From NCBI RefSeq assembly GCF_058153355.1, contig NZ_CM177019.1: 64,000 nt of DNA; one strand, 5' to 3'. The position numbers and the translations under genes were made by a program. Below the pieces are notes generated by a model, which saw only the letters and a list, made by a program, of their open reading frames with translations, did no database searches and was not told where the DNA came from. This document shows, piece by piece, positions 13,688 to 32,671 of this stretch. Position 1 is the stretch's first letter. Every line of letters begins with the position of its first letter.

Positions 13688-14085
13688 TACTATTCCTCAA
13701 AAAACCAAAAGCGCGTTATTTACCTAAAAAGGCAACGCGTTAACTCGCAGAAAGAAAAATACAGTTCGCTATCCTACAAATTATCATTCGTCGATGTAAG
13801 GAATAGTTATGAATACTGGCGTCTCAAGGCACATAAACACAAAAAAAGATTAATATTTTACTGTTTTATTTTGACGCGGGTTGAAAGAGGTAGAATCAAA
13901 TCCTCGTAAATTGAAATATATATTGATAGAGTGAATGTATTTTAGGTAAATAATAAACGTTATTTATTTGACGATTTATAGCAACTCAATATTAGTCTCT
14001 CGTATAAATATACATTAGGTGATAGATTAACCTTCGCTATTTTCTCATCCTGTGTCGAATATATTTATTTCCTGAATAATTAATC

Positions 14086-14748
14086 ATGGCAAAAAGAACC
14101 AAAGCTGAAGCCCTGAAGACCCGGCAAGAACTGATTGAAACTGCCATCGCCCAGTTTGCGCAGCATGGCGTAAGCAAGACGACGCTCAACGACATTGCCG
14201 ACGCCGCTAACGTTACGCGTGGCGCTATCTACTGGCACTTCGAGAACAAGACCCAACTGTTTAATGAGATGTGGTTGCAACAGCCTTCATTGCGGGAGTT
14301 AATCCAGGATCACTTGACTGCTGGGTTAGAGCATGACCCGTTTCAGCAATTGCGTGAAAAATTGATTGTTGGCTTGCAATATATTGCCAAAATTCCCCGC
14401 CAGCAGGCGTTGCTGAAAATCTTATATCACAAATGTGAATTTAATGATGAGATGCTGGCAGAGGGAGTGATACGCGAAAAGATGGGCTTTAATCCGCAGA
14501 CTCTCCGCGAAGTATTGCAGGCATGTCAGCAACAAGGTTGTATAGCAAATAATCTCGATTTAGATGTTGTGATGATTATTATTGATGGTGCCTTCAGCGG
14601 AATTGTTCAAAACTGGTTAATGAATATGGCGGGTTATGATCTTTATAAACAAGCACCCGCACTGGTCGATAACGTATTAAGAATGTTCATGCCAGATGAA
14701 AACATAACGAAATTAATTCATCAAACGAATGAATTAAGTGTCATATAA
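14086..14748 (+). CDS. acrS: TetR-family transcriptional repressor AcrS (EnvR)
   Basis: 220 aa with N-terminal TetR HTH (TRQELIETAIAQFAQHGVSKTTLNDIADAANVTRGAIYWHF); divergent from acrEF. Confidence 0.92.
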   Translation: MAKRTKAEALKTRQELIETAIAQFAQHGVSKTTLNDIADAANVTRGAIYWHFENKTQLFNEMWLQQPSLRELIQDHLTAGLEHDPFQQLREKLIVGLQYIAKIPRQQALLKILYHKCEFNDEMLAEGVIREKMGFNPQTLREVLQACQQQGCIANNLDLDVVMIIIDGAFSGIVQNWLMNMAGYDLYKQAPALVDNVLRMFMPDENITKLIHQTNELSVI

Positions 14749-14750
14749 AT

Positions 14751-14930
14751 TCACATTCTGTCCTGAAAATTCAGTTCGTCACAGTTAACCAGTTTTAGTG
14801 GATTAACTGAGTTCATATTGCGGCATTTGTCTGTTTCTGTTGCCAGCAGTTCAATCCACTGCATCAGTAAAGTATCAAACAGAAAAACGAAGACAGCGAA
14901 AACGACGAGCCACCAATACTTGCGAATCAT
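14751..14930 (-). CDS. yhdU: Small membrane protein YhdU
   Basis: Hydrophobic small ORF (MIRKYWWLVVFAVFVFLFDTLLMQW...); start chosen at internal ATG (59 aa) rather than the TTG of the ORF track. Confidence 0.55.
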   Translation of the reverse strand: MIRKYWWLVVFAVFVFLFDTLLMQWIELLATETDKCRNMNSVNPLKLVNCDELNFQDRM

Positions 14931-15013
14931 TACCTGAGCCTGTGCATGTTTAACCAAGTCTGGCAGGAAATATACACGAAATGAATAATCTGAAAACCAG
15001 GCTTACACTTCCT

Positions 15014-15898
15014 TTACTTTGCAATGAGATCGGGGGCAACTTCGCTTAACCGGCTTCGTTTTGACAGGTTGCCGGTCTTTCTTTTTTTCACTTTCGCCAG
15101 TTCTTCCGCAGAGTAATGCGATGCGACATCCAGCCGTCGAAGCCCCATTTTGATGTACTCGCTGTTGATCTCAATACCAATGAATTTTCGCCCGCTGGCG
15201 GCGGCTACGGCACCGGTAGTAAAGCTACCGGCAAACGGGTCGAGAACGATATCGCCTGGGTTGGAAGAGGCGAGAATAATGCGTTTCAGTAAGGCTTCCG
15301 GTTTTTGCGTCGGGTGATTCTCATATTCATCCATCAAATAACGCACGCGCGGAAAATCCCAGACGTTACCCGGTACTTTTTGATGATTGTAAGGCCGTGG
15401 AGGATTTTTGCGATAATCGATCAACGCGCGCTGCGCTCCGGTTTTGGCTTCAACCAGAATAGCATCACCGTTGAATGTGTAGTTCTTTGCGTCTTTCACC
15501 ATCATCAGGATGGGTTCGTACATGGAGCCGTAGTGTTTTTTCGCCTGCACTCCAGAACTGTCATATGACCAGACGATGCGACTTTTGATGGTAAAAAGTT
15601 TGCGGCACTGGAGATCGATAAAGGGCATGTTTTCCGTGCTGTTCATGATGTACATGCTGCCCTGCTTTTTCAGAACGCGGTGGCACTCTGCAATCACTTC
15701 AAACAGCCAGTCGATAAACAGATCTTCTTTCCAGGCTTCGATCAGACCATCAAAATTTTTACCGATGTTATACGGTGGGTCGGCAAAGATTAGATCTACA
15801 CTTTCGGCGGGGATCTTTTTAAGTTCGGTTAATGCATCACCCTGGATGATGGTCTTTGCTTCATTACCAAATCGGGTCGGTTCACATCCTGTTCTCAT
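15014..15898 (-). CDS. yhdJ: DNA adenine N6-methyltransferase (orphan, no restriction partner in window)
   Basis: Motif IV DPPY (FADPPYNIG) and C-terminal FDPFAGSFTTG AdoMet motif; ATG with GGGAG SD; 294 aa. Confidence 0.9.
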   Translation of the reverse strand: MRTGCEPTRFGNEAKTIIQGDALTELKKIPAESVDLIFADPPYNIGKNFDGLIEAWKEDLFIDWLFEVIAECHRVLKKQGSMYIMNSTENMPFIDLQCRKLFTIKSRIVWSYDSSGVQAKKHYGSMYEPILMMVKDAKNYTFNGDAILVEAKTGAQRALIDYRKNPPRPYNHQKVPGNVWDFPRVRYLMDEYENHPTQKPEALLKRIILASSNPGDIVLDPFAGSFTTGAVAAASGRKFIGIEINSEYIKMGLRRLDVASHYSAEELAKVKKRKTGNLSKRSRLSEVAPDLIAK

Positions 15899-15921
15899 GG
15901 TCACTCCCTTTGTGACACCTA

Positions 15922-15959
15922 TAAAAAAGGCGCTTCCCCATGCCGAGTAGCGCCTTTTT
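15922..15959 (-). terminator. Rho-independent terminator downstream of fis
   Basis: Palindromic aaaaaaggcgc...gcgccttttt hairpin with flanking A/T runs between fis stop and yhdJ start. Confidence 0.7.
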
Positions 15960-15983
15960 AATCAAGCATTTAGCTAACCTGAA

Positions 15984-16280
15984 TTAGTTCATGCCGTATT
16001 TTTTCAATTTTTTACGCAGCGTACCACGGTTGATGCCCATCATCAGCGCAGCACGGGTCTGGTTACCACGGGTGTATTGCATCACCATGTCCAACAGGGG
16101 CTGTTCTACTTCAGCCAGTACCAGCTCATAGAGGTCATTCACATCCTGACCGTTCAGTTGAGCAAAATAGTTCTTCAGTGCCTGTTTAACCGAGTCACGC
16201 AGGGGTTTTTGGGTTACCTGATCCTGAGAGTTAACGGTAGAAACGGTCAGTACGTCAGAATTTACGCGTTGTTCGAACAT
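15984..16280 (-). CDS. fis: Nucleoid-associated protein Fis
   Basis: 98 aa [98 protein letters not shown]. Confidence 0.98.
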
Positions 16281-16305
16281 AGTTCTGTCAGCTCTTTATT
16301 TCTGT

Positions 16306-17271
16306 TTACGCAAAATTTTCGAAGTATGCCTCCAACGCCTCCAGCTGTTCGCTGGCATCCTCAATGGCGTTGAATGTGCGCCGAAACTGGTCATTTGGAG
16401 CGTGTTCCTGGAGATACCAGGAAACGTGTTTACGTGCAATTCGGTACCCTTTTGCCGGACCATAAAAGTCATGCAGTTCCCGAACGTGCGCGCAAAGCAA
16501 GCGCTTAACCTCTGCCAAAGGCAGCGGGGGCAGCAACTCCCCAGTGTCCAGATAATGCTGGATTTCCCGAAAGATCCAGGGTCTTCCCTGAGCTGCGCGG
16601 CCTATCATCAGGGCATCCGCCCCTGTATAGTCGAGCACAGCTCTGGCTTTAAGCGGGTCAGTAATGTCGCCATTCGCGATAACCGGAATGGAAACTTTCT
16701 GCTTAACTGCCCGAATACTGTCGTACTCAGCTTCTCCATTGAACAAACAGGCGCGTGTACGGCCATGAATGGTCAGAGCCTGAATGCCACAGTCTTCAGC
16801 CAGTTGGGCAATCTCTTCGCAGTTACGGTGTTCCGGCGCCCAGCCGGTGCGAATCTTCAGGGTAACAGGAACGTCCACTGCATTGACGACCTCGGTAAGG
16901 ATCGATTTAACGACATCCGGGTACTGCAAGAGGGCTGAACCTGCGAGCTTGCGATTCACTTTTTTAGCCGGGCAACCCATATTGATATCAATAATCTGGG
17001 CACCGCTTTCCACGTTAATACGTGCTGCATCTGCCATTTCTTTCGGATCGCTACCGGCAATTTGCACGGTGCGAATACCGGGTTCATCAATGTGCACCAT
17101 CCGTAAACGAGATTTGTCGCTTTCCCAAACCTGTGGGTTAGAAGACATCATCTCGGATACTGTCAATCCGGCTCCCATCTCGTAGCACAACGTCCGAAAA
17201 GGTCTGTCTGTAATGCCAGCCATGGGCGCTGCGATCAGGCGATTTCTGAGCTGATATTGTCCGATGCGCAT
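16306..17271 (-). CDS. dusB: tRNA-dihydrouridine synthase B
   Basis: 321 aa FMN-dependent Dus fold; operon partner of fis. Confidence 0.95.
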
Positions 17272-17599
17272 GAGTTAAGAAATGACCATACTGTGACTGC
17301 AAGGCGGCGTATATTACGCATTTTTTGCACGAGATGAAAGGCCAAACTTTGACCAATCCTCTGAGATGGATCAAAGAATTGCATTTAAAATGAGCTTGGC
17401 GCGATAATTACTCATAAAAATCATTATATTAGAAAATAGTGACTAAAATTTACACTCCAAGAAATTTGAGTAAGTTCTCAATTTTTCTTTATGAATGAAA
17501 ATTTTGGCACGCAAATTTGCGTAAATAATCGGCAAATTAACGTGCCTTTTGTGACCTTGCTCGCACTTCGCCTTGCGTCACCATACGGCGATGCGAAGG
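17272..17599 (-). promoter_or_regulatory. AT-rich dusB-fis promoter region
   Basis: 328 bp AT-rich intergenic region upstream of dusB; individual sites not resolved by eye. Confidence 0.45.
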
Positions 17600-18481
17600 T
17601 TAATTCTTACGACCGGTAATGCGGCACCACTCTTCTTTTTCCACGACCGGGTCCAGAGCGAAGCTGTCGGCATAAGCTTCACAAACGCTCTCTGCCTGGC
17701 TTGCCAGAATACCGGAAAGGCCCAGCAAGCCACCTGAAACCGGCAGGACGCTGATTAACGGTGCCAGTTCACGTAATGGGCCTGCAAGGATGTTAGCGAC
17801 CACCACGTCGGCTTTCATTTCTTCTGGCTGATCTTTAGGTAGGTAGAGTTCCAGACGGTCAGAAACGCCATTACGTTCGGCGTTGTCGCGGCTGGCCTGA
17901 ATCGCCTGCGGATCAATATCAATACCAATGGCTTTTGCTGCACCCAGTTTCAGCGCCGCGATAGCCAGAATGCCGGAACCACAGCCAAAGTCGATGACCG
18001 TTTTACCGGTTAAATCGAGGCTGTCGAGCCATTGCAGGCACAGAGAGGTGGTTGGATGAGTCCCTGTACCAAACGCCAGACCTGGGTCTAACATTACGTT
18101 GACGGCGTTTTCGTCCGGCACATCACGCCAGCTTGGGCAGATCCACAGTCGTTCACCAAAGCGCATCGGGTGGAAATTATCCATCCATTCGCGCTCCCAG
18201 TCTTTATCTTCCAGTTGTTCGATTTTATGCGCAAAGCCCGCGCCGAGCAGAGGATGGTTTTCCAGAATTGCCACCACGTCGTTCATATCGGTTTCAGCGT
18301 CGAACAGACCAATCACATCGGTGTCGCCCCACAGGCGCGTTTCGCCCGGCAGCGGCTCAAACACAGGCGTATCGTGGGTATCCTGAAAAGTGATAGAAAC
18401 GGCACCCGCTTCCATCAGCGCATCGCTAAGATCTTCCGCGTTCGCGCCGGTAGTGTTCAGTTTCAGTTGGATCCAAGGCAT
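17600..18481 (-). CDS. prmA: Ribosomal protein L11 methyltransferase
   Basis: 293 aa, AdoMet motif [18 protein letters not shown]. Confidence 0.95.
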
Positions 18482-18492
18482 GGCAAAACTCT

Positions 18493-19944
18493 TTATTTAT
18501 CAGTAGTCAAAACGGTAGCTTGCGGGACGGATGTACCGAAACGGTTTCCGACCAGGAAAGCCAGCAAACTTAGCAGCAACGAGGGCACGATAGGGTGGAA
18601 GCCCAGGTACTGAATATTCAGCGTCGCGAGTACGGCATACAGTACGCCGCCAACGATCATCGCACTTAGCGCGCCTTTGGCGTTGGCGCGTTCCCAGTAA
18701 AGACCCAGCACCAGCGGCCACAGGAAAACGGCTTCCAGCCCACCGAAGGCCAGCAAATTCAGCCAGATGATCATTTCTGGCGGCTTCCAGGCGGCAAGCA
18801 GCAGCAACGCACCGAGAACCAACGTGATCACCGCCGACATCCGCTTCAGACGCGTCTCGTTTTGCATTTGATCCGGACGGATATTCAGATAGAGATCTTT
18901 AATGATCGTAGCGGAACTTTGCAGCAACTGGGCATTGATCGTCGACATGATCGCAGCCATAGGTGCAGCCAGGAAGATCCCGGCAGCAAACGGTGGCAGC
19001 ACTTTTACCATCAACGTCGGGATCACCAGGTCCGGTACGGTGAGATCGGGGATCACCGCCCGACCTAACGCTCCGGCCAGGTGCATACCGAACATCAGGA
19101 TTGCGACCACAATCGTACCGATGATGATCCCCCGATGTACGGCTTTGCTGTCTTTATAAGAGATACAGCGCACCGCAGTATGCGGCAGGCCAATCACGCC
19201 AAAACACACCAGCACCCAGAACGACGTCATAAACGCAGGTGACAGAATATCGTCAGCGCCTTGTGGCGTAACCAGTTGCGGATCGATGGTTTGCAGCGTC
19301 TCTACCGCATTGCTTAAGCCGCCAGCAGCATGGACCACGCCAATAAGCAGCACAATGGTGCCAATCAGCATCACCAGCCCTTGCATGGTGTCGTTCAGCA
19401 CGCTGGCGCGAAAGCCGCCAAAGGCGGTGTAGAGCGCAATGCTGATGCCAAAAATCAGCAAACCTGTTTCATAAGGGATACCCGCCGCGGTTTCCAGCAG
19501 GCGCGCACCGCCGATAAACTGCACGGTCATCGCACCAACGAACGCAACCAGCAAACTCAAACTCGCCAGCCACACCAGCAGGCGACTCTGGTAGCGGGCA
19601 AACAGCATATCGTTCAGCGTCACCGCATTGTAGCGGCGCGCGAGAATCGCGAACTTCTTGCCGAGAATACCGAGCGAAAGCCAGACCGCAGGTAGCTGAA
19701 TCATTGCCAGCAATACCCAACCCAGGCCGTATTTATAAGCAGCTCCTGGCCCGCCGATAAACGAACTGGCACTGATATAGGTCGCGGTGAGCGTCATCGC
19801 CAGCACAATACCGCCCATAGAGCGGCTACCGAGGAAATACTCATTAAGGAAGGTGCCGGTGCTCCGTTTACGCATCGCATAAACAGAGATACCGAACACC
19901 ACCACCAGATAGGCGACCAGCGGTAGAATCACTTCAAGCTGCAT
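18493..19944 (-). CDS. panF: Sodium/pantothenate symporter
   Basis: SSS-family multi-TM protein; start set at second ATG (SD GGAGG 6 nt upstream), 483 aa. Confidence 0.93.
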
Positions 19945-20176
19945 CGTCATCCTCCAGTGGGATATCGCGATAGATAAATTTCACCATCGCCCAGCACAGT
20001 CCAATAAACAGCAGCGGCGTCAGGATGCAAGCCATCTCAAACCAGCGTGGAAAGCCGGTAAAACCGGGGGTAACGCCAGGTAAGTAAGCGGATACTAACC
20101 ATACCGCCAGATACAAAAGGGTCAGCCCCAGCGCCCAGCGCGCCTCTTTATGGGCCTGAACAAAACGAGTGTCCAC
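19934..20176 (-). CDS. yhdT: Small membrane protein YhdT (cotranscribed with panF)
   Basis: 80 aa from GTG start preceded by AGGAGG at 9 nt spacing; overlaps panF start by 11 nt. Confidence 0.8.
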   Translation of the reverse strand: MDTRFVQAHKEARWALGLTLLYLAVWLVSAYLPGVTPGFTGFPRWFEMACILTPLLFIGLCWAMVKFIYRDIPLEDDDAA

Positions 20177-20268
20177 GGAAGGGGTCCTCCTCATGGGGGG
20201 ATACGAGAAACGGGCAATTCTACGGCAACTCTTCAGGCAGGGAAAATAATCTGACAGAAAATTGCCGT

Positions 20269-21225
20269 TCAGTGCTGCTGCAAAAAGTCTTCAATGTCAG
20301 TCAGTGAGGATATCCCTTCCATCGGACCTTGCCGCATTACCGCGAGCGCGCCGCTGGCATTTGCATATTGCAGCGCCTTGTGTGCCGGGATACCGGATAA
20401 GAAAAGAGTGACAAACGTTGCGCCAAAGCAGTCGCCTGCACCCGTTGGATCGATTATTTCGATATCGTGGCCTGCAACATGCTTGGCGTGTAATGTTCCG
20501 TTTTTAATCTTGTAATAGCTGGCCCCACGCTGGGCGCGTTTTATCGCCACATGTTTTACGCCGCCGTGGAGAAGATCGCTAACAATCTGTTCTTCTGACA
20601 GATTTTTGTGACGCGCGAAGAAAGGGAGTTCGCTTTCGCTGGGGATAAAAATATCCGTATATTCAATCAAATAATCGAGAGCCTGCGCCATTTCAGGAAT
20701 ACTCAGCATCTCTTTGCGAATATTGGGATCGAAAGAAACGGTGCCGCCAGCCGATTTGATCGTCGTTATTGCTTTACGCATGACATCGATCATGCGAAAT
20801 GAGAACAATGATGAGCCCACAATATGCAGATGGTTACACTGTTTTAGCAGATCCTTATCAATGTGCTCGGCAGTAAACAAACCGCAGGCGCTGTTAGGGA
20901 TATTAAAGACGAAATCCCGCTGCTGGGGATTTTGATAACTCACGAATGCCGTACCTGTTACGGCATTGTTCATAACATGGATCCCATCGGTAATGACACC
21001 TTCATGACGGAGGCGCTCTATAATGAGTCGGCCAAAATCATCATTACCAACACATCCGAAGAAGATGGCCCGATGGGACAGTTTTGCCACCTGAGCAGCA
21101 AAAATTGCTGGTGCACCGCTGGGAAATGGCCCGATAAACTCCCCAGGCTGAGTGAATTTTTGATGTGGGTTGCGGGACAAAAACTCGGCCAGCAATTCGC
21201 CCATAGCGCAGATAGTTATTGTCAC
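20269..21225 (-). CDS. PfkB-family sugar kinase (island kinase 1)
   Basis: C-terminal DPTGAGDCFGATF and N-terminal GxxxGGAP-like PSGAPAIF motifs; paralogous to ORF 26760-27722; start set at GTG 21225 (GAGG 6 nt upstream; aligns with N-terminus of paralog) instead of ORF-track 21279. Confidence 0.8.
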   Translation of the reverse strand: MTITICAMGELLAEFLSRNPHQKFTQPGEFIGPFPSGAPAIFAAQVAKLSHRAIFFGCVGNDDFGRLIIERLRHEGVITDGIHVMNNAVTGTAFVSYQNPQQRDFVFNIPNSACGLFTAEHIDKDLLKQCNHLHIVGSSLFSFRMIDVMRKAITTIKSAGGTVSFDPNIRKEMLSIPEMAQALDYLIEYTDIFIPSESELPFFARHKNLSEEQIVSDLLHGGVKHVAIKRAQRGASYYKIKNGTLHAKHVAGHDIEIIDPTGAGDCFGATFVTLFLSGIPAHKALQYANASGALAVMRQGPMEGISSLTDIEDFLQQH

Positions 21226-21235
21226 AAAACCCCTC

Positions 21236-22066
21236 TCATTCCTGAAGCCTTTCGCGATTGGACCAGGTAAAGCACTCATTACTGGTATAAAGGATAACGA
21301 AATCAGCCGACTGCAATTGTTGCTGATATTGTTCGTTAATGCTGCGGCTGACGATCACATTTTCTGCCTGATGCAAATGCCCGATAGCAGCCGTTGATGG
21401 CGCAGGATCGGCGGCAACGATAACTGTCTTATTCTGGGCATGATCGAAACAGAGCTGCCAGGCAGCGGCAAGTCTGGGAACGTTGATATTTAAAGTACCA
21501 TCAGCATCCAGATGGCTGATTTCCAGAATGCTGTGTGTAATGGTGAAATGCTGAAGTGCCTGTTCGAGCGGTTTTCCGGCCAGTGCGGTGTCGGGGCGCA
21601 GCATTTCACTGCCAGCCAGTATTATTTCGCCATCAATAAACTGATTTGCCAGCAGCGCATGTTCGGGATCGTTGGTGATCAGACGCAGTTTTTTCACTTC
21701 GCTGAGCAATGGAATGATCTTACGGCAGATTGTCCCATGTCCAAGAAATAGCGTGTCACGATCCCGAATTAACCGTGCGCAATGTCGTGCTATTTCCATT
21801 TGTTGTGCCAGAGACAATGGCGCGATCGGTTGTATCGCTTCTGGTTCAGAGGAGAGTGGTGTCGCAATAGCACCGCCAAATGATCGCTTTAAATATCCCT
21901 GTTGCTCCAGATAACTGAGATCGCCGCGGATCGTCACGCCAGAGACACCAAGTTGCGCAGATAAGTCATCAACTTTGATTTCACCCTGGGCGGCAACAAT
22001 TTCTGCAATTTTTAATCTGCGTTTCAGTAGGTTAGACGATTTTCTCGGCACGTTAACACTCTTCAT
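21236..22066 (-). CDS. DeoR-family transcriptional regulator
   Basis: 276 aa; N-terminal HTH RRLKIAEIVAAQGEIKVDDLSAQLGVSGVTIRGDLSYLEQQGYLKR typical of DeoR/GlpR/AgaR, C-terminal sugar-phosphate sensor domain; stop is 10 nt before kinase 1 start. Confidence 0.85.
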   Translation of the reverse strand: MKSVNVPRKSSNLLKRRLKIAEIVAAQGEIKVDDLSAQLGVSGVTIRGDLSYLEQQGYLKRSFGGAIATPLSSEPEAIQPIAPLSLAQQMEIARHCARLIRDRDTLFLGHGTICRKIIPLLSEVKKLRLITNDPEHALLANQFIDGEIILAGSEMLRPDTALAGKPLEQALQHFTITHSILEISHLDADGTLNINVPRLAAAWQLCFDHAQNKTVIVAADPAPSTAAIGHLHQAENVIVSRSINEQYQQQLQSADFVILYTSNECFTWSNRERLQE

Positions 22067-22239
22067 TGGCCTTTAATGCGTAACACTATAGCCCCTTGTA
22101 TTTTTCTTTGAAAGTTACCCTTCAATAATATCGACAATTCGAAAATAAAAGCATAGGGCAAAAATTGCAGCAAAAATAGCTTAATGCATTGAAAATAAAT
22201 GAATATTTCCATATCTGTCCAAAGGCATCATTGGTTTCA

Positions 22240-22254
22240 TTTTCAAAGTGAAAA
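22240..22254. promoter_or_regulatory. Candidate operator palindrome TTTTCA-AAG-TGAAAA
   Basis: Perfect 6-3-6 inverted repeat in divergent intergenic region between DeoR gene and aldolase operon. Confidence 0.4.
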
Positions 22255-22337
22255 ATAAATTAAGTTATTTTTTGTAAGTTATTTTGATGATATTCGACAT
22301 GCGTCACGCTTTTTACCGCTTTTGCTGTGCTAGTTTG

Positions 22338-22352
22338 CTTTCAAAATGAAAG
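22338..22352. promoter_or_regulatory. Candidate operator palindrome CTTTCA-AAA-TGAAAG
   Basis: Perfect 6-3-6 inverted repeat about 55 bp upstream of aldolase ATG; related copy ttcattttgtaaggtgaa at 22368-22385. Confidence 0.4.
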
Positions 22353-22379
22353 TGAAGATTCTCTTTCTTCATTTTGTAA

Positions 22380-23261
<882 letters not shown>

Positions 23262-23296
23262 GACGTTGTACCCTACAAAAACAATGAGGATTGTTT

Positions 23297-24187
23297 ATGA
23301 AAAATATTAAATTACTTGGTTCCGCTATGATGGTGAGCCTGGCATTGTTCTCGCAAAGTTCATTGGCAAAAGAGTATAAAATTGGAGCTTCATTATTAAC
23401 ACAGCAACACCCTTTTTATATCGACCTCGCAAATGCAATGAAAGAAGAGGCGAAAAAAGACAATGTCAATTTAAGTGTCTCTATTGCCAATCAGGATTTA
23501 AACAAACAGCTTTCTGATGTTGAGGATTTTATTACTAAAAAGGTAGATGCCATTATTATCTCTCCGGTCGATTCGAAAGGTGTCCAGGCAGCGATAATTA
23601 AAGCCGATAAGGCTGGTATTCCCGTTATCACCGTTGACGTTGCCGCGGAAGGCGTTCCGGTCGTATCGCATGTTGCGACCGATAATTACGCGGGAGGCGT
23701 TGAAGCTGGTAAGTTAATGGGCAAACTTTTGAATGGTAAAGGTACTGTAGCCATTATTTCTTATCCTGCACTACAATCGGTGGTTGCACGCGTTGATGGC
23801 TTTAAGAAAGGATTAAGCGATACGCCGGATATTAAAATTGTTGCGGAACAGCCTGGTATTACGCGCGCTGAAGCGTTAACGACTACGCAAAATATTATGC
23901 AGGCCAACGCCAACCTGAATGGTCTGTTTGGCTTTGGTGATGATGCGGCGCTGGCGGCGGTTATAGCGGCGAAATCTGCGCATAACGACAACATCAAAAT
24001 CATTGGTTTTGATGGTATGAAAGAAGCGCGAGATGCCGTTGATAGTGAAAAAACGTTTGCGGCCGTGATTCGGCAATATCCCGATCAAATGGGTGCTAAA
24101 GCCATAGATGCCGCTGTTGATCACCTCAATGGTAAACCGGTAGAGAAAATGATCCCGGTACAACCCGGCGTTTATACAGGTAAATAA
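23297..24187 (+). CDS. Periplasmic sugar-binding protein (RbsB-like)
   Basis: 296 aa from ATG 23297 (GAGGA 6 nt upstream); signal peptide MKNIKLLGSAMMVSLALFSQSSLA; PBP type I fold similar to ribose-binding protein. Confidence 0.82.
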   Translation: MKNIKLLGSAMMVSLALFSQSSLAKEYKIGASLLTQQHPFYIDLANAMKEEAKKDNVNLSVSIANQDLNKQLSDVEDFITKKVDAIIISPVDSKGVQAAIIKADKAGIPVITVDVAAEGVPVVSHVATDNYAGGVEAGKLMGKLLNGKGTVAIISYPALQSVVARVDGFKKGLSDTPDIKIVAEQPGITRAEALTTTQNIMQANANLNGLFGFGDDAALAAVIAAKSAHNDNIKIIGFDGMKEARDAVDSEKTFAAVIRQYPDQMGAKAIDAAVDHLNGKPVEKMIPVQPGVYTGK

Positions 24188-24247
24188 TAAACATCTTCAT
24201 TTCACAACAAAACGTTATCGACGTTTTGTTGTGACACCGAGGTCATT

Positions 24248-25669
24248 ATGACGGATGTTATTCTTGATGTTTCGCATATTGCGAAGACATTTGGTCATGT
24301 TCAGGCATTAAAAGATATTACACTCTCTTTACGTAAAGGGCGGGTACATACTTTATTAGGTGAGAATGGTGCCGGTAAATCGACATTAATGAAAATATTG
24401 GCCGGTGTTTATCCGCCAACCCAGGGAACAATAAAACTACGTGGTGAAACTATCACAATTAATAATCCGCAGCATTCACGTCAGTTAGGGATTGCTATTA
24501 TTTTTCAGGAACTGAGCCTGAGTAATAATATGACCGTGGCGGAAAATATTTATGCCAATAATGAACCGCGACGTTTTGGCATTATTAACGATAAAAAAAT
24601 GCTCGCAGATTGCCAGAATCTCCTCGCGGAACTGGGCATCCCACTGGATCCGCTGGAAATGGTCGGCAATATGTCGATGGCACATAGGCAACTGGTAGAA
24701 ATTGCCAAAGCCTTAAGCTATGCAGCAGATGTCGTGATTATGGATGAACCGACATCTTCGCTAAGTGATAATGAAGCAGAGATTCTGTTTAACATTATTG
24801 AGAAATTAAAGCAGCGAGGTTGTGCGGTTATTTATATCTCTCATCGCATGGATGAAATTATGCGGATTTCAGATGATATTTCGGTGATCCGCGACGGTGA
24901 GTATATCGCTACGCATGAAAAGAAAAACAGTGATATCCAGCATTTGATTGCCCAAATGGTTGGTCGGGAAATGAAAAATATTTGGCCAGCACGTCTTGGG
25001 GAAAAGCCGGATGAAAATATTCCTGCAAAACTGGAAGTAAAAAACCTTTCCCATCCTTCGCTTTTTAAAGAGGTCAGTTTCGCTGTGCGTCCGGGGGAAG
25101 TCCTCGGATTTTTTGGCCTGGTGGGGGCCGGGCGTTCCGATGTGATGAAGGCGCTATTTGGCCTCATTTCGTATCACGGGACTGTGTTGATTGATGGTAA
25201 GGAAGTCAGGATCGCTAATCCCAAACAGGCCATTGATCATGGCATTGCATTTGTGACCGAAAACCGCAAGGAAGAAGGGTTAGTGCTGATGCACGACGTC
25301 AATATGAACACGCACCACGTGGCGTTTCAATATAACGCTTCGCGGATGGGACTCATCAATCACCGACAAGAAGAGACGAAGACGCTGCAATCTATTGCCA
25401 GAATGAATACTAAAGTGAGTTCTGTACATCAGGCTGTGGGGGCGCTAAGCGGCGGTAATCAACAGAAAATCGTGTTATCGAAGTGGCTGGAGAAAACCCC
25501 ACGTATTTTATTGCTCGATGAGCCTACGCGCGGAGTGGATGTCGGCGCAAAATTTGAAATCTATAACGTGATACGTCAACTGGCTGCGGCAGGAACAGCA
25601 ATTATTCTGGTGTCCTCTGAACTGCCTGAAGTCATGGCACTTAGCGATCGTCTGGTGGTTAATGCGTAA
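24248..25669 (+). CDS. Sugar ABC transporter ATP-binding protein, two-domain RbsA-like; apparent frameshift truncates C-terminus (remaining 28 codons continue in the next frame to 25748)
   Basis: Two nucleotide-binding domains (Walker A GENGAGKST and GLVGAGRSD, signature LSGGNQQK, Walker B LLLDEPTRGVD); ORF stops after ...LSDRLVVNA, while the next frame reads MRNKTIADIYSCENLTQTQVMTAATGVR and ends directly before the permease ATG. Confidence 0.8.
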   Translation: MTDVILDVSHIAKTFGHVQALKDITLSLRKGRVHTLLGENGAGKSTLMKILAGVYPPTQGTIKLRGETITINNPQHSRQLGIAIIFQELSLSNNMTVAENIYANNEPRRFGIINDKKMLADCQNLLAELGIPLDPLEMVGNMSMAHRQLVEIAKALSYAADVVIMDEPTSSLSDNEAEILFNIIEKLKQRGCAVIYISHRMDEIMRISDDISVIRDGEYIATHEKKNSDIQHLIAQMVGREMKNIWPARLGEKPDENIPAKLEVKNLSHPSLFKEVSFAVRPGEVLGFFGLVGAGRSDVMKALFGLISYHGTVLIDGKEVRIANPKQAIDHGIAFVTENRKEEGLVLMHDVNMNTHHVAFQYNASRMGLINHRQEETKTLQSIARMNTKVSSVHQAVGALSGGNQQKIVLSKWLEKTPRILLLDEPTRGVDVGAKFEIYNVIRQLAAAGTAIILVSSELPEVMALSDRLVVNA

Positions 25670-25748
25670 TAAAACGATTGCCGATATTTATTCATGTGAA
25701 AATTTAACGCAGACACAGGTAATGACCGCTGCAACAGGAGTACGTTAA

Positions 25749-26738
25749 ATGACAGAGAAAACTCTTGCCAGTCCGAAACCTTCGGAAATTCCCATTGCAA
25801 ATAATTTTAAAAAAGTCTTCAGGCAATATGGCGGTATCCTCAGTGGAATGGTGGTGTTAATCATTCTGTTCAGTTTTATTAATGACAGTTTTTTTACTGC
25901 CAATAACATTACTAATATTATTCTTCAGGTTTCGATAATTGCAATTACCGCCTATGGAATGACTTATGTACTTTTGCTTGGCGATATTGATTTATCGGTC
26001 GGTTCAACCATTGCATTGATTGGCACATTTGCTGCGCTTGGGGCTTCATGGGGAATTCCATTTATTTTATTGGTCCCATTATCCATTATTGTAGCCCTGG
26101 CTCTGGGGATGATAAATGGTGGCTTGACGGCTATAGCGGGTATCCCTTCGTTTATTGTCACCGTTGCTACAATGGGGATCTTCCGTGGTATCGCTTATAT
26201 AGTGACCGATGGTATGCCCATCATGATTAAAGATGATGCCTTTCTGGCGCTGGGGAATGGAGAATTTCTCTATATACCGATTCCTATCTGGATATTAATC
26301 ATCTTATTGCTGATTAACCACTTCATTCTTACTAAAACAACCTTTGGACGAAAAATTTATATCACTGGTGGTAATAAAGAAGCGGCAGTCTATTCAGGGA
26401 TAAATGTCACCCGCTTGAAAATTAAAGTCTTTATGATTACAGCCGTGCTGGCAGGTATCAGCGGGATGATCCTCGCCTCACGCCTCTATTCCGGGCAACC
26501 GAATTCCGCGTTGAGCTACGAACTGGATGCTATTGCCGCGGCTGTACTGGGAGGCACCAGCCTGAACGGCGGCTATGGAACCGTGGTGGGGACGGTGATC
26601 GGCGCATTAACCATCGGCGTTATTAATAATGGCATGAACTTAATGAATGTTCCCTATTTTTACCAGATGGTGGTTAAAGGATTAGTCATTCTTGTAGCCG
26701 TTTATTTTGACGTAAGAAATAAAAGAAAACGCAGCTAA
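25749..26738 (+). CDS. Sugar ABC transporter permease (RbsC-like)
   Basis: 329 aa, about 10 TM segments, start codon abuts the frame-restored stop of the ATPase. Confidence 0.82.
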   Translation: MTEKTLASPKPSEIPIANNFKKVFRQYGGILSGMVVLIILFSFINDSFFTANNITNIILQVSIIAITAYGMTYVLLLGDIDLSVGSTIALIGTFAALGASWGIPFILLVPLSIIVALALGMINGGLTAIAGIPSFIVTVATMGIFRGIAYIVTDGMPIMIKDDAFLALGNGEFLYIPIPIWILIILLLINHFILTKTTFGRKIYITGGNKEAAVYSGINVTRLKIKVFMITAVLAGISGMILASRLYSGQPNSALSYELDAIAAAVLGGTSLNGGYGTVVGTVIGALTIGVINNGMNLMNVPYFYQMVVKGLVILVAVYFDVRNKRKRS

Positions 26739-26759
26739 TCATTTCAAGGAATTAATCAT

Positions 26760-27722
26760 ATGAGTAAGGTCTTCACAATTGGAGAAATTCTTGTTGAAAT
26801 TATGGCGAGTAAAATCGGCCAGCCATTTGATCAACCAGGTATCTGGAACGGCCCTTATCCCAGTGGTGCGCCCGCTATTTTTATCGACCAGGTGACACGT
26901 CTTGGCGTTCCGTGCGGCATCATTAGCTGTGTGGGGAATGATGGCTTTGGTGATATTAATATACATCGTTTGGCTGCTGATGGTGTGGATATCAGGGGGA
27001 TTTCAGTCTTACCTCTGGAAGCCACCGGTAGCGCCTTTGTTACTTATCATAACTCTGGCGATCGTGATTTTATTTTTAATATCAAGAATGCCGCTTGCGG
27101 TAAATTATCGGCGCAGCATGTTGATGAAAATATTCTGAAGGACTGTACCCATTTTCATATTATGGGTTCATCCCTGTTTTCATTCCATATGGTAGACGCA
27201 GTAAAGAAAGCGGTAACCATTGTAAAGGAGAATGGTGGCGTTATTTCTTTCGACCCTAATATTCGGAAAGAGATGCTCGATATTCCAGAAATGCGTGACG
27301 CCCTCCACTTTGTTCTTGAGTTAACAGATATCTATATGCCCAGCGAGGGAGAAGTGTTGCTCTTGTCGCCACACTCGACACCGGAGCGTGCAATCGCTGG
27401 TTTTCTTGAAGAAGGTGTTAAAGAGGTGATTGTGAAGCGCGGCAATCAAGGTGCCAGTTACTACTCCGCGAATGAGCAGTTTCATGTTGAGAGCTATCCG
27501 GTGGATGAAGTTGACCCGACCGGTGCGGGAGACTGCTTTGGTGGCGCGTGGATTGCCTGCCGCCAGCTAGGGTTTGACGCCCATCGGGCATTACAATATG
27601 CCAACGCCTGCGGTGCACTGGCGGTAACCCGACGTGGCCCAATGGAGGGAACGTCTCGCCTTGCGGAAATCGAAGCGTTCATCCAGCGCCATGACATGTC
27701 CATTCGGGAAGCAGCACAATGA
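26760..27722 (+). CDS. PfkB-family sugar kinase (island kinase 2)
   Basis: 320 aa; DPTGAGDCFGGAW anion-hole motif, PSGAPAIF N-terminal motif; paralog of kinase 1. Confidence 0.82.
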   Translation: MSKVFTIGEILVEIMASKIGQPFDQPGIWNGPYPSGAPAIFIDQVTRLGVPCGIISCVGNDGFGDINIHRLAADGVDIRGISVLPLEATGSAFVTYHNSGDRDFIFNIKNAACGKLSAQHVDENILKDCTHFHIMGSSLFSFHMVDAVKKAVTIVKENGGVISFDPNIRKEMLDIPEMRDALHFVLELTDIYMPSEGEVLLLSPHSTPERAIAGFLEEGVKEVIVKRGNQGASYYSANEQFHVESYPVDEVDPTGAGDCFGGAWIACRQLGFDAHRALQYANACGALAVTRRGPMEGTSRLAEIEAFIQRHDMSIREAAQ

Positions 27723-28765
27723 AAAACGAAATTTGGTCGTGGATTGGCGATCTCTCGCAGGTTGCCGGAATTAAACACTATGAGTTACGTAGTGGCAGAT
27801 CAAAGGGGACAGAAGCGTTTGATGTCCGTACTGGTGCGGGATTGGCATTTACGGTGGTAAAAGATCGCGCGCTGGATATTGCATGGGCCAGCTACAAGGA
27901 CACTGCGCTCTCTTTTATCACCCCCAACGGCATTGTCGCGCCTGCTTTTTTTGAGCCGCAGGGCAATGGATTTTTGCGTAGCTTCTACGCGGGATTACTG
28001 ACCACATGCGGACTTAGCTACATTGGGACGCCCTGTGAGGATGAAGGAGAAACGCTGGGATTACCCGGACGTTTGGCTGCGACACCAGCGGAAGAGGTGG
28101 GATATCGCACAGAACGGACCGACGACGGCATTGAATTTGTCATCAATGGCAAATTACGGGAAACGCGATTGTTCGGTGAAAATCTGACGTTGGAAAGGAC
28201 CATTCGCTGCCGCTATGGCGAAAATGTGCTGCGCATTGAAGACAAGGTGACTAATCATGGTTTCACCCGCCAGCCGCTGCAAATTCTTTATCACTTTAAT
28301 TACGGCTGGCCTTTATTATCGCCACAGGCAGAAATCTTGCTGTCGGCTAAAAGCGTAACGCCACGAACCCCGCATGCGGCGGAAGGGTTAACCAGTCATC
28401 TGGAGATTTGTACCCCACAGCCCGGTTTTGACGAGCAGGTTTACTATCTCACGTTGAATAGCGACAGTCAGGGGATGAGTAAAGTTGCGCTGGTGAACGC
28501 CGAACTGGGGTGGGGAATTTACGAGAAATTCGACACCATGCAGCTACCCAACTTTATCCAGTGGAAAAATTTAGGCGCGGGTGAATATGTTATGGGGCTG
28601 GAGGTCAGCAATAGTTTTCCTGACGGTCGTGATAAAGAACGAGCGCAGGGGCGTCTGCCCTTTATAGAGCCAAGGGAAACAAAGACATACTGCTTTGAGC
28701 TGGGAATTGTTGATGGCGATGCTGAAATTAGCGCGTTGAAAGCGGAAATTGCAGGCTACCGTTAG
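27719..28765 (+). CDS. Uncharacterised protein, possibly aldose-1-epimerase/mutarotase-like (DUF-type)
   Basis: 348 aa, no recognisable catalytic motif by eye; start overlaps kinase 2 stop by 4 nt (ATGA), so translationally coupled; family assignment is a guess. Confidence 0.5.
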   Translation: MKNEIWSWIGDLSQVAGIKHYELRSGRSKGTEAFDVRTGAGLAFTVVKDRALDIAWASYKDTALSFITPNGIVAPAFFEPQGNGFLRSFYAGLLTTCGLSYIGTPCEDEGETLGLPGRLAATPAEEVGYRTERTDDGIEFVINGKLRETRLFGENLTLERTIRCRYGENVLRIEDKVTNHGFTRQPLQILYHFNYGWPLLSPQAEILLSAKSVTPRTPHAAEGLTSHLEICTPQPGFDEQVYYLTLNSDSQGMSKVALVNAELGWGIYEKFDTMQLPNFIQWKNLGAGEYVMGLEVSNSFPDGRDKERAQGRLPFIEPRETKTYCFELGIVDGDAEISALKAEIAGYR

Positions 28766-28775
28766 TTAACGGTAA

Positions 28776-28810
28776 TAAAAACGCCGGGCAGCCTTAACAG
28801 GCCCGGCGTT
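28776..28810. terminator. Bidirectional hairpin between convergent island operon and accC
   Basis: Perfect 10 bp stem aacgccgggc/gcccggcgtt with 11 nt loop; T-run on minus-strand side (accC terminator), A-run on plus side. Confidence 0.7.
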
Positions 28811-28856
28811 AATTACGTTCTTTGCTAAGCGCGATGAAAACACCGCGCGACACAAA

Positions 28857-30206
28857 TTATTTTTCCTGAAGACCGAGTTTTTTCTCCAGATAGTGGATGT
28901 TAGTGCCACCATGCTGGAAGTTCTCGTCATTCATGATGCGAATCTGCAGATCAACGTTGGTTTTGATACCATCGATGATCAGCTCCTGCAGCGCATTCTT
29001 CATGCGGGCAATCGCTACGTCACGGTTTTCACCGTAGCAAATCAGCTTACCGATCATTGAGTCATAGTACGGCGGTACGGTGTAGCCCGCGTAGATATGA
29101 GACTCCCAACGCACGCCAAAACCGCCAGGTGCATGGAAACGGGTGATTTTGCCCGGACTTGGCAGGAAGGTGTTCGGATCTTCGGCGTTAATACGGCATT
29201 CCACCGCATGGCCGCGAACGTGAACTTCTTCTTGCTTGATCGACAGTGGCTGACCAGCAGCAATACGCAGTTGTTCTTTGATCAGGTCAACACCGGTGAT
29301 CATTTCAGTAACCGGGTGTTCTACCTGAATACGGGTGTTCATTTCGATGAAATAGAACTCGCCGTTTTCGAACAGAAACTCGAAAGTACCTGCACCGCGA
29401 TAGCCGATATCAACACACGCTTTAGCACAACGTTCACCGATGTAGCGACGCAGTTCCGGGGTAATGCCCGGTGCTGGCGCTTCTTCGACCACTTTCTGGT
29501 GACGACGCTGCATAGAGCAGTCACGTTCCGCCAGATAGATAGCGTTGCCCTGACCGTCCGCCAGTACCTGGATCTCGACGTGGCGAGGATTTTCCAGGTA
29601 TTTCTCCATGTAAACCATGTCGTTATTGAAAGCGGCTTTCGCTTCCGCACGGGTCATGGAGATGGATTGCGCCAGTTCAGCGTCGCCGCGTACTACACGC
29701 ATACCACGACCGCCGCCGCCGCCGGAGGCTTTGATAATCACCGGGTAACCAATGCGTTTTGCAATGGCGCGGTTTTTATCCATATCGTCGCCCAGCGGGC
29801 CGTCAGAACCCGGTACGCAAGGAACGCCCGCTTTTTTCATCGCGGCGATTGCGGATACTTTGTCACCCATCAGGCGAATGGTGTCTGCTTTCGGGCCGAT
29901 GAAGATAAAGCCGGAGCGTTCAACCTGCTCGGCAAAATTGGCGTTCTCGGAGAGGAAGCCGTAACCCGGATGGATTGCTACTGCGCCGGTGATTTCAGCG
30001 GCGCTGATGATTGCCGGGATGTTCAGATAACTTTTTACTGACGGAGCAGGGCCGATACAGACCGTTTCGTCTGCCAGTAATACGTGTTTTAGATCGCGAT
30101 CCGCACTGGAGTGCACAGCGACAGTCTTGATGCCCAGTTCTTTACAGGCACGAAGAATACGCAATGCAATCTCGCCGCGGTTGGCAATAACAATTTTATC
30201 CAGCAT
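28857..30206 (-). CDS. accC: Biotin carboxylase subunit of acetyl-CoA carboxylase
   Basis: 449 aa starting [33 protein letters not shown]; ATP-grasp motifs; start trimmed from ORF-track extension (GAGG SD). Confidence 0.97.
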
Positions 30207-30216
30207 GTTCGCCTCG

Positions 30217-30687
30217 TTACTCGATGACGACCAGCGGCTCGTCAAATTCTACCGGTTGTCCACTTTCGACCAGAATTGCTTTCACGGTACCGGATTTGTC
30301 CGCTTCGATCTGGTTCATCATTTTCATGGCTTCAACGATGCACAGGGTATCGCCCACGTTGACTTTCTGCCCCACTTCGATGAACGCTTTTGCGTCCGGG
30401 CTTGGGGTGCGGTAGAAAGTACCAACCATCGGGGAACGTACGATGTGACCACTGATTTCCGCTGCTGCTGGCGCTTCCATGGAAGGAACGGTCGCCGGAG
30501 CGGCTGCGTTAGATTGAGCTGGCTGCTGCATCATTGGTGCAGCGTAAGCTTGTTGCATCACAGGGAAACTTGCGGCAGGAGCTGCACGGCTGATGCGTAC
30601 TGACTCTTCGCCTTCGGAGATTTCCAGTTCGGAGATGCCTGATTCTTCAACCAGCTCGATCAGTTTTTTAATCTTACGAATATCCAT
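30217..30687 (-). CDS. accB: Biotin carboxyl carrier protein of acetyl-CoA carboxylase
   Basis: 156 aa; biotinylation motif [10 protein letters not shown]; Ala/Pro-rich linker. Confidence 0.97.
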
Positions 30688-31696
30688 GAGTGGGTTCCGT
30701 ACTCTTTGTTTAGTGTGATTGTGACAGGCGTTTCACCGCCGTCTGTAAAGCGTATGCCCCGACAGCTGTATGCATAGCGATAAATTCCAGCAGGCCGGGA
30801 CGCCGGTCTATTTTGCCCCAGAGTGTCAATGTTTAGACTTGACGGACATTGTGCAGCGATCTGCTGCTATCCTCCGGCAAAAAACAAAATATACCTTCGT
30901 TGCGCCAATGTCACCTTTTCCGCAGCGCAAAAACTGCGTCAGGGAGGACGAGGTCGCACATTATAACGATTTCGTAGCAATTGGCAGCTAAATACTGGTC
31001 TTATCAGGGAAGATAATCAACAGCTAACATGTAAATAACCTTCAACACCGTGTAATTTGCAACAAGCCGCACAATTCACGAAATTAGCGCTATCGTCGAC
31101 GGAACTTCTTATAACGTAAGGCTAAAAGCTGTAAAGCTAGCTCTGCGAAGATGAGGGGCTGCAATGAGATGATCCTCACAGACCACAAATAATGTAGGGA
31201 TGTCAGGATCGCGGCAAGATAGACGACATTACGCAGCGGTTGCTGGTGATTACTCAATTTTCACGGCATCGTCCGGATAGACGTCTATGCTAAAGCACGC
31301 AAAATCAACAAACTGACAATGCTCAGCATCAAATAGTTTTGAGTGGTTAATTTATAATCAAATAAAATCAGATTATTCACCCCTGGGATCAGAGTTAAGA
31401 TACAGATTAAGCGTAGCGTCACCCAGGCAAAGCGCCTTAAACCTAACAGACGACGGGACGTATCAATAATGACTATTTAGTGGAGTATCAAGGGTGTTTT
31501 CCACCGTTTGGTGACCCGTATCAATGCGCATCAATTTATGGTCAGTCGAAATCATGACTTTCCAGTTTGGATGATGTTGTACAACTTCATGACCAAGATG
31601 TTCGACGAAAGCTGTCCGGCTAACCGCTTTTCCCGTTAACCGATTGAATAATGATTTCAAAATGAGTTCCCTCTCTTATTATTCCCTGATAAATGG

Positions 31697-32671
31697 TTAG
31701 TTAACCTTCACCAGCGTGCGACCCTGGATCTGGTTATTAATGATGGCCTCGGCAAATTTCGGTGCCTCTGCCAGAGATATCTCTTTTGCCGCCTGGGTAT
31801 AGAATGATTCCGGTAAATCGGCGACCAGTCGCTGCCAGGCTTGTGCGCGGCGTGCTGGTGGCGTCATCACTGAATCCACCCCCTGTAAACGGACATTACG
31901 CAGAATAAATGGCATGACCGTGGTTGGCAGAGTAAAACCACCCGCCAGACCACAGGCCGCCACGCAGCCGCCGTAATTCATTTGCGCCAGCACTTTCGCC
32001 AGCACTTTGTCGCCAACGGTGTCAATTGCCCCAGCCCAGAGTTGTTTTTCCAGAGGACGGGATTCGGCAAACTCATCGCGAGGGAGAATACGGCTGGCAC
32101 CTAAACTTTTCAGATATTCATGGGTACTTTCGCGACCGGAAACGGCAACGACCTGATAACCCAACTTATGCAGCAGCGCCACGGCGGTACTGCCGACGCC
32201 ACCACTGGCACCCGTTACGACAATCTCGCCGTCCTGCGGGCGAACACCGGCATCTTCCAGCGCCATCACACACAGCATGGCGGTAAAACCGGCAGTACCG
32301 ATAATCATTGCTTTACGCGCGTCCAGCCCTTGCGGCATGGCAACCAGCCAGTCACCTTTCACTCGCGCCTGCTCCGCCAGCCCACCCCAGTGGTTTTCAC
32401 CAACGCCCCAGCCAGTGAGTAACACGTCCTGACCGGCATGAAAACGCGGATCTTCGCTGGTGCGTACAGTTCCGGCAAAATCGATCCCAGGAATCATCGG
32501 AAAATTACGGATGATTTTTCCCTTACCAGTAATCGCCAGCGCATCTTTGTAGTTCAGGCTCGACCAGTGAACATCGACCGTGACATCGCCCTCCGGAAGG
32601 TGACTTTCGTCCAGAGTCTGTACCGATGCGAGAGTTTTGCCGTCCTGCTGTTCTAAAAGTAACGCCTGCAT
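31697..32671 (-). CDS. acuI: NADPH-dependent acryloyl-CoA reductase / quinone oxidoreductase-like MDR protein
   Basis: 324 aa medium-chain dehydrogenase/reductase fold with GASGGVGS nucleotide motif; K-12 yhdH position. Confidence 0.88.
   Translation of the reverse strand: MQALLLEQQDGKTLASVQTLDESHLPEGDVTVDVHWSSLNYKDALAITGKGKIIRNFPMIPGIDFAGTVRTSEDPRFHAGQDVLLTGWGVGENHWGGLAEQARVKGDWLVAMPQGLDARKAMIIGTAGFTAMLCVMALEDAGVRPQDGEIVVTGASGGVGSTAVALLHKLGYQVVAVSGRESTHEYLKSLGASRILPRDEFAESRPLEKQLWAGAIDTVGDKVLAKVLAQMNYGGCVAACGLAGGFTLPTTVMPFILRNVRLQGVDSVMTPPARRAQAWQRLVADLPESFYTQAAKEISLAEAPKFAEAIINNQIQGRTLVKVN

Follow-up and report, generated by a model that had tools for sequence, protein, structure and literature searches.

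A copy of the Escherichia coli D-tagatose (tag) locus with a frameshifted transporter gene between yhdT and accC

The DNA studied is a stretch of 64,000 nt from contig NZ_CM177019.1 of assembly GCF_058153355.1, referred to here as the window, and the subject of this work is the group of eight genes that lies in it between yhdT and accC. With a probability of about 0.9, this segment is the Escherichia coli tag locus, an accessory locus for D-tagatose catabolism in which tagK and tagR are divergent from tagYABCDE. According to the two papers on this locus, an 8.5-kb region of eight genes lies between accC and yhdT in strain Nissle 1917 and is absent from K-12 (Ha 2022, PMC9720028), and its genes were named tagK, tagR, tagY, tagA, tagB, tagC, tagD and tagE when the control elements were mapped (Park 2025, PMC12226905). 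The position, order and orientation of the genes in the window are those of ECOLIN_RS18670-18705 of Nissle 1917. The eight proteins displayed 96.6-99.3% amino acid identity to their Nissle counterparts, and the lengths were equal save for the truncated ATPase. One of the six operon genes, tagB, is frameshifted here. The copy is, judged from its sequence, a member of the tag locus type, but a damaged allele.

The eight open reading frames form two divergent units, tagK-tagR on the minus strand and tagYABCDE on the plus strand. They occupy 8,680 bp (20177-28856) in the place of the 108-bp accC-yhdT spacer of K-12 MG1655. The homology between the window and K-12 ends at the start codon of yhdT (20175/20176) and restarts at the stop codon of accC (28857). 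An earlier, preliminary description of this DNA had claimed eight extra genes absent from K-12, arranged in two divergent units and belonging to families which were now recovered by Nissle orthology and NCBIfam similarities, and all of this was borne out. It had also presented the island as novel, unless the whole operon should prove orthologous to an already characterised pathway. That is the situation found: the segment is not new, since it is orthologous to a characterised pathway with a known substrate, D-tagatose.

In the published route, free D-tagatose is taken in by TagABC, an importer of the Rbs-type ATP-binding cassette (ABC) class. TagD then forms tagatose-6-phosphate, the chromosomal PfkA of the host forms tagatose-1,6-bisphosphate, and the GatY-like aldolase TagY generates dihydroxyacetone phosphate and glyceraldehyde-3-phosphate (PMC9720028). 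The same paper describes that Nissle without tagYABCDE does not grow on D-tagatose, and that an in-frame deletion of ECOLIN_RS18675 (tagD) alone has the same effect. A plasmid with the six genes, which did not include tagK, conferred growth on tagatose to K-12, BL21(DE3) and W, and in K-12 this growth needed pfkA and not pfkB. Induction of the operon by tagatose ranged between 40-fold and more than 1000-fold, as determined by quantitative reverse-transcription PCR. Growth on tagatose is therein demonstrated for Nissle and for plasmid-bearing laboratory strains (PMC9720028). The preliminary description had proposed ABC uptake, a kinase step and class II aldol cleavage, in agreement with this route. 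Tagatose was the first substrate on its list of candidates. Phosphorylation(s) by the kinases of the island, as it proposed, found no support for the second step, which was shown to need the PfkA of the host.

The family assignments were evaluated for each enzyme. TagY scored above two NCBIfam cutoffs, TIGR01858 (473.8 vs 443.55) and the GatY subfamily (523.2 vs 383). TagA, TagB and TagC resemble components of ribose, arabinose and xylose ABC systems in NCBIfam, and show the composition of an Rbs-type (CUT2) importer: a Peripla_BP_4 binding protein, an ATPase with two ABC domains and a BPD_transp_2 permease, these Pfam families being taken from the Citrobacter farmeri orthologues (87-92% identical). 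TagD reached 413.4 bits against NF049991, the NCBIfam equivalog model for tagatose kinase, just below its cutoff of 420. Its assignment is therefore based on its near identity to the genetically tested Nissle kinase (Table 1) and not on this score. The entries 3iq0 and 3k9e of the PDB, named ‘putative ribokinase II’, were found to be near-identical to TagD (722.6 bits, residues 1-320). The second kinase, TagK, shares 51% identity with TagD. It obtained 343.2 bits against the same tagatose kinase model, and because this is below 420 bits TagK is not to be called a tagatose kinase.

Two other accounts of what the locus does were weighed. That it encodes an uncharacterised, novel carbohydrate pathway is hardly credible: the product names in RefSeq are generic (‘sugar kinase’, ‘substrate-binding domain-containing protein’), but two dedicated experimental papers treat exactly this locus (PMC9720028, PMC12226905) and the proteins are 97-99% identical to those of the studied strain. 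It could also be argued that D-tagatose is a laboratory substrate only, and that TagK and TagE serve another or an additional natural sugar. In favour of this, D-tagatose is seldom found free in nature, the plasmid phenotype does not require TagK, which scores 343 against 420 bits as a tagatose kinase, and proteins of the DUF4432 family, to which TagE belongs, adjoin many different sugar pathways. Against this stand the more than 1000-fold induction and the full growth sustained by tagatose, the loss of that growth upon deletion of tagD (PMC9720028), and the 413 bits of TagD against the curated tagatose kinase model. Another natural sugar was accordingly judged quite improbable, and D-tagatose is kept as the substrate of the locus.

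When the window copy was compared with the Nissle locus, the promoters, the CRP site and the operators were found to be alike, whereas tagB has a +1 frameshift and TagE carries the substitutions H116P and G319R. The frameshift results from an extra T (TT at 25659-25660) with respect to UTI89, 2020CK-00188, Z0117EC0005 and Nissle. As a consequence, TagB stops at residue 473 of 499 (ending in DRLVVNA), so that the last 26 residues are lost, and the gap between tagB and tagC becomes 79 nt, compared with 0 nt in intact alleles. The frameshift had been overlooked in the preliminary description, which gave the operon short or overlapping junctions. The former C-terminal coding sequence continues in another frame up to 25747. 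Removal of the T in silico restored a protein of 499 aa with a tail identical to that of Nissle and conserved in Citrobacter, and the family profiles reach 30-36 positions past the truncation.

The lesion was observed only in this copy. The 69-mer of the window differs from all 1,420 complete E. coli genomes that were matched over that stretch, which means that none of them has the frameshift allele, and the exact 33-mer spanning the frameshift was not found in species-representative genomes. The TagE substitutions are likewise private: codon 116 (28064-28066) reads CCC instead of CAC and codon 319 (28673-28675) reads AGG instead of GGG, and the exact 71-mers of the window around these two codons occur in no E. 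coli genome. Position 116 is His in 113 of 114 DUF4432 homologues, and position 319 is Gly in 109 of the 114. The private frameshift would cost the ATPase its final 26 residues and uncouple tagC. The transporter, and perhaps TagE, is probably impaired in this strain, and the damage is judged to be recent.

Several points weigh against impairment. The truncated TagB keeps both Walker and signature regions and might stay active, tagC has its own AGGAG ribosome-binding site, and H116P in TagE may be without effect on growth. Moreover, the private changes do not provide a sound case for relaxed selection: the segment has 12 nonsynonymous to 25 synonymous ones and the flanks 1 to 16 (Fisher p = 0.043), which is marginal and confounded by gene class, because accC, accB and panF normally change more slowly than accessory genes do. 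This argument was rejected. Alternatively, the copy could be fully functional: the extra T would have arisen in sequencing or assembly, or the truncation would be tolerated, and the changes in TagE would be neutral. The lesion is indeed a single base, the seven other genes are intact, the control region is conserved, and the old frame is perfect beyond the frameshift, which fits an error or a very recent event. On the other hand, the change from T to TT lies outside any long homopolymer, and the extra T is the only genuine indel in a coding sequence over 31.5 kb with respect to the closest genome; errors are therefore not frequent in the assembly as a whole. In addition, two more private changes strike near-invariant residues of TagE, and the 26 lost residues are kept across genera and fall within the span of the family profiles. 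A fully functional copy is therefore regarded as rather unlikely, though it carries more weight than the two accounts discussed above, and a probably impaired allele is the preferred reading.

With a guanine + cytosine (GC) content of 0.460, compared with 0.509 in the remainder of the window, the segment has the lowest value of any 8.7-kb stretch in the 64 kb. The transporter genes range from 0.42 to 0.45 and the intergenic control region has 0.32. The AT-richness pointed out in the preliminary description was therefore real (the two 60-nt lines that it quoted have 35% and 36.7% GC), and so was the lack of mobility genes, tRNA and flanking repeats. None of the eight segment proteins matched a mobility family in the NCBIfam and PHROG searches, no tRNA was found close to the segment, the nearest one being at 3895, and the search for flanking direct or inverted repeats gave just short matches at chance level and the signal of the tagK/tagD paralogues. 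The segment thus lacks the integrase or transposase, the tRNA or att target and the flanking repeats of an integrative genomic island or mobile element. No Rfam match was obtained at E ≤ 1 within 19900-31700.

The distribution of the locus was evaluated by megablast, a check that had been proposed earlier. It is present in 1,422 of 5,426 complete E. coli genomes, each with one full-length copy, and the carriers include UTI89, ST131 and Nissle 1917. Furthermore, two Citrobacter farmeri assemblies and a Superficieibacter-like contig carry the whole eight-gene locus between the same two genes, yhdT and accC (at 2217-11047 of these comparison stretches). The nucleotide identity to these copies is 74-82%, similar to the 78-83% of the non-essential flanking genes panF, yhdT, acuI and csrD, and the low GC content is retained in them. 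Within E. coli, the window segment diverges from the B2 segment by 1-6% per gene and by about 8.5% in the control region, whereas the flanking core genes diverge by 1-4%. The window allele is mosaic-like: its control region is 99.4% identical to that of 2020CK-00188 and 92.4% to that of Z0117EC0005, also a close relative, while tagK and tagY are nearer to Z0117EC0005. This suggests homologous recombination between lineages within the locus.

A recent horizontal acquisition into E. coli would account for the GC content, 4-5 points below the flanks here and deviating likewise in PMC9720028, and for the patchy carriage. The locus is carried by 26% of the complete genomes in the megablast count; by phylogroup, it is present in 93% of B2, 73% of F and less than 7% of the others (PMC9720028). 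Horizontal acquisition is what the published work suggests from the GC deviation and the B2 enrichment (PMC9720028), and the preliminary description had leaned the same way. The comparison across genera weakens this proposal, since the identical locus stands at the identical site in C. farmeri and in the Superficieibacter-like contig, with a divergence like that of the non-essential flanks and with its low GC conserved. Besides, the divergence from the B2 segment is similar to or above that of the flanking core genes, and integrase, tRNA and repeats are all lacking. Recent acquisition was judged unlikely. Synteny at the same site together with core-like divergence instead suggests an old locus that was repeatedly lost or exchanged through its conserved flanks, which would explain why no mobility genes are found. 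Its presence or absence would most simply arise by deletion and by homologous recombination through these flanks. The K-12 spacer was also considered as a possible deletion scar. It shows a faint similarity to the yhdT-tagK spacer in its left third and to the tagE-accC spacer in the part with the terminator, in collinear positions, but scores as high came from 29 of 500 shuffles for the former and from 9 for the latter. This is suggestive only and was not used as evidence.

The control region between tagR and tagY corresponds closely to that described for Nissle (Table 1). TagR, whose best NCBIfam similarity is AgaR, represses the tag operon, as evidenced by a reporter and by TagR overexpression; the transcription start sites were determined by differential RNA sequencing and catabolite repression was described (PMC12226905). 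At Ptag, tagatose lifts the repression by TagR and glucose blocks induction, as published for Nissle, where the CRP site is a sequence prediction. The -35 element of Ptag reads TTTTTA in the window, compared with the published TTTTTG.

Beyond the published tagO1 and tagO2, extra candidate copies of the TagR operator core (CTTWCAAAR / TTTCAAAGTGAAA) were observed. Of the five CTTWCAAAR copies present in the whole window, four fall within the 340-bp control region. The two extra ones have invariant columns across E. coli, C. farmeri and the Superficieibacter-like contig, and the palindrome block at 22241-22253 is largely kept across the same set. Since the copy at 22106-22114 overlaps the -35 element of Preg, autoregulation is possible. 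The copy at 22270-22278 and the palindrome stand about 70-100 bp upstream of tagO1, a spacing which makes looping possible. Four conserved operator motifs, and not the published two, would then allow a repression loop.

The kinase gene tagK belongs to the ‘reg’ operon together with tagR, and its published induction is only about 2-fold. Its product probably starts at the GTG at 21225 and not at the annotated ATG at 21204, because GAGGGG precedes this codon, it is conserved and called in C. farmeri, and it restores the first β-strand as in TagD. DeoR-family repressors usually answer to phosphorylated intermediates. This habit, combined with the steady expression of TagK, makes it plausible that TagK is the maker of the true effector. 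Co-transcribed with tagR at a steady level, TagK may form a phosphorylated inducer. It may thus act as a sensor kinase which converts the first tagatose molecules into the phosphorylated effector that releases TagR.

The last gene of the operon, tagE, had been listed in the preliminary description as an uncharacterised protein of 348 aa. The length was right, but the protein is not featureless: it matches Pfam DUF4432 with 339 bits and its predicted structure has the galactose mutarotase fold. The AlphaFold model displayed a predicted local distance difference test value (pLDDT) of 92. A profile search of the PDB sequences gave the uncharacterised 3ty1 as the only solved relative, and the model matches it with a template modelling (TM) score of 0.89. 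The next matches obtained with Foldseek were galactose mutarotases and a hexose-6-phosphate mutarotase (TM about 0.6, E 1e-13 to 1e-9). Comparison of the motif contexts pairs H116 in LGLHGR with H104 of GalM in QLHGG, H192 in LYHFNYG with H175 in TNHVYFN, and E295 in MGLEVS with E309 in LALESE. The contexts LHG, xHxxN and GLE follow the same order in both proteins. From this and the overall fold, we infer that the near-invariant His/His/Glu of TagE correspond to the catalytic residues of GalM. The mutarotase β-sandwich is present in the model; the window copy has Pro for the first His.

The sequence searches do not support the relationship to GalM. Pfam assigns TagE to DUF4432 alone and not to the GalM family PF01263, and NCBIfam gave no match. 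An hhalign run of the DUF4432 alignment against the single E. coli GalM sequence produced no alignment, which weighs against a GalM-like TagE. A homologue search seeded with GalM returned sequences too similar for a useful profile, the best 120 matches all having at least 76% identity. Elsewhere, the neighbours of DUF4432 genes include diverse sugar transporters, kinases, dehydrogenases and aldolases, which fits a generic accessory role.

Such a role can be envisaged in the tagatose pathway. In a 2-ketohexopyranose, O6 is part of the ring, so a 6-kinase can use only the minor furanose and open-chain forms. TagE most likely acts in the opening and re-closing of the sugar ring: it would open imported tagatopyranose and re-close it, thereby delivering the furanose form, which is open to phosphorylation by the 6-kinase TagD. 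The combined picture, with TagE as the first DUF4432 protein to be assigned a definite role (a ketohexose ring-opening mutarotase or ‘tagatose pyranase’), TagK as a sensor kinase and this strain as a natural, very recent loss-of-function case, is put forward as tentative.

The tag locus combines features of several known systems. In Sinorhizobium meliloti and Agrobacterium tumefaciens, as described in PMC9720028, tagatose is likewise taken up by an ABC transporter and phosphorylated by a PfkB-type 6-kinase. There, tagatose-6-phosphate is epimerised to fructose-6-phosphate by a 4-epimerase, whereas the tag locus relies on PfkA and then on a dedicated aldolase. The slot of the epimerase is filled in the tag locus by the unrelated DUF4432 protein. 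A class II tagatose-1,6-bisphosphate aldolase is shared with the gat and aga/kba systems of E. coli and with the phosphotransferase system (PTS) tagatose pathway of Klebsiella oxytoca, and the repressor is likewise of the DeoR family, with an AgaR-like layout. These three systems import by PTS and use a GatZ/KbaZ partner; in contrast, the tag locus has an ABC importer and a kinase, with no GatZ-like gene. The closest arrangement of transport genes is that of rbsDACBK, with an Rbs-type binding protein, an ATPase with tandem nucleotide-binding domains (NBD), a single permease and a PfkB kinase, to which the tag locus adds an aldolase. The rbs operon also contains an accessory ring-form converter, the RbsD pyranase, and a comparable role is proposed for TagE, although its mutarotase β-sandwich is unrelated to RbsD. 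GalM (PF01263) resembles TagE in fold, but with no detectable match between the sequence profiles.

Table 1. Features of the tag locus and of its borders in the window (positions in the 64,000-nt stretch)
Feature	Position	Strand	Remarks
yhdT, left core flank	19934..20176	-	GTG start here; K-12 homology ends at 20175
tagK, second PfkB-family sugar kinase, ‘reg’ operon	20269..21204	-	98.1% identical to ECOLIN_RS18705
tagR, DeoR/GlpR-family repressor	21236..22066	-	99.3% identical to ECOLIN_RS18700
tagR-tagY intergenic control region, 340 bp, 32% GC	22067..22406		element definitions from PMC12226905
Preg -10	22085-22090	-	hexamer in place
Preg -35	22107-22112	-	hexamer in place
Extra CTTWCAAAR copy	22106-22114	-	overlaps Preg -35
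Palindrome	22241-22253		operator-like, upstream of tagO1
Extra CTTWCAAAR copy	22270-22278	-	upstream of tagO1
Predicted CRP site	22293-22308		exact vs Nissle
Ptag -35	22310-22315	+	
Ptag -10	22331-22336	+	in place
Ptag transcription start site	~22343	+	
tagO1	22338-22356		one mismatch vs published
tagO2	22362-22380	-	exact
tagY, class II tagatose-1,6-bisphosphate aldolase, GatY-like	22407..23261	+	97.5% identical to ECOLIN_RS18695
tagA, periplasmic sugar-binding protein, RbsB-like	23297..24187	+	Nissle orthology, NCBIfam
tagB, tandem-NBD ABC ATPase, truncated to 473 aa	24248..25669	+	Nissle orthology, NCBIfam
tagC, ABC permease, RbsC/AraH-like	25749..26738	+	Nissle orthology, NCBIfam
tagD, D-tagatose kinase (tagatose-6-phosphate)	26760..27722	+	98.8% identical to ECOLIN_RS18675
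tagE, 348 aa, DUF4432, galactose mutarotase fold	27719..28765	+	Pfam, predicted structure
GC-rich hairpin, 10 bp	28780-28810	both	z = -5.3 on minus, -3.6 on plus
Second hairpin	28829-28848		right edge of segment
accC, right core flank	28857..30206	-	core gene

A stem-loop was found as an inverted repeat between tagA and tagB, at 24193-24243 on the plus strand, with a perfect inner stem of 15 bp (24202-24234). Its minimum free energy is -21.6 kcal/mol (z = -6.2). It may be an element of mRNA stability or processing that sets the ratio of the binding protein to the membrane components, and the available text of PMC9720028 and PMC12226905 contains no mention of it. At the right end, the GC-rich hairpin is followed by a U-run on the minus strand and is on that ground taken to terminate accC, and it likewise closes the tag operon. 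The accC terminator hairpin that the preliminary description saw at this edge is thus present, although its sequence is not that of the K-12 accC terminator.

Outside the segment, the left flank (1-20000) contains part of an rrn operon (tRNA-Ile, tRNA-Ala, 23S, 5S, tRNA-Thr and a second 5S) and, beyond it, yhdWXYZ, acrEF, acrS, yhdJ, fis and dusB. It is at least 99% identical in just 10 of 5,468 E. coli records, which indicates that complete genomes of the source lineage are scarce in the collection. On the other side, between accB and acuI (31105-31458, minus strand), a remnant of an MsrQ/YedZ-like heme-binding subunit was observed, covering residues 76-193 with 53% identity to an intact C. 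farmeri gene. Its MsrP-like partner is wholly missing. This remnant is the counterpart of the K-12 pseudogenes yrdE/yrdF and represents a second decayed accessory unit beside the tag locus.

Work published in 2022 and 2025 had already described the locus together with its substrate, pathway and regulation (PMC9720028, PMC12226905), and the tag locus is already in use as a tagatose-inducible expression system. What is added here is incremental and consists of the lesions particular to this strain, the synteny across genera, the further operator motifs and the proposals for TagE and TagK. They provide concrete, testable hypotheses for tagE, for tagK and for the additional TagR operator sites. 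The synteny across genera with core-like divergence counts against the published reading of a recent transfer (PMC9720028). Finally, if this copy is a damaged natural allele, carriage of the locus is no guarantee of a tagatose-positive phenotype, and the lesions bear on the claimed advantage that tagatose in the diet gives to B2 and pathogenic E. coli.

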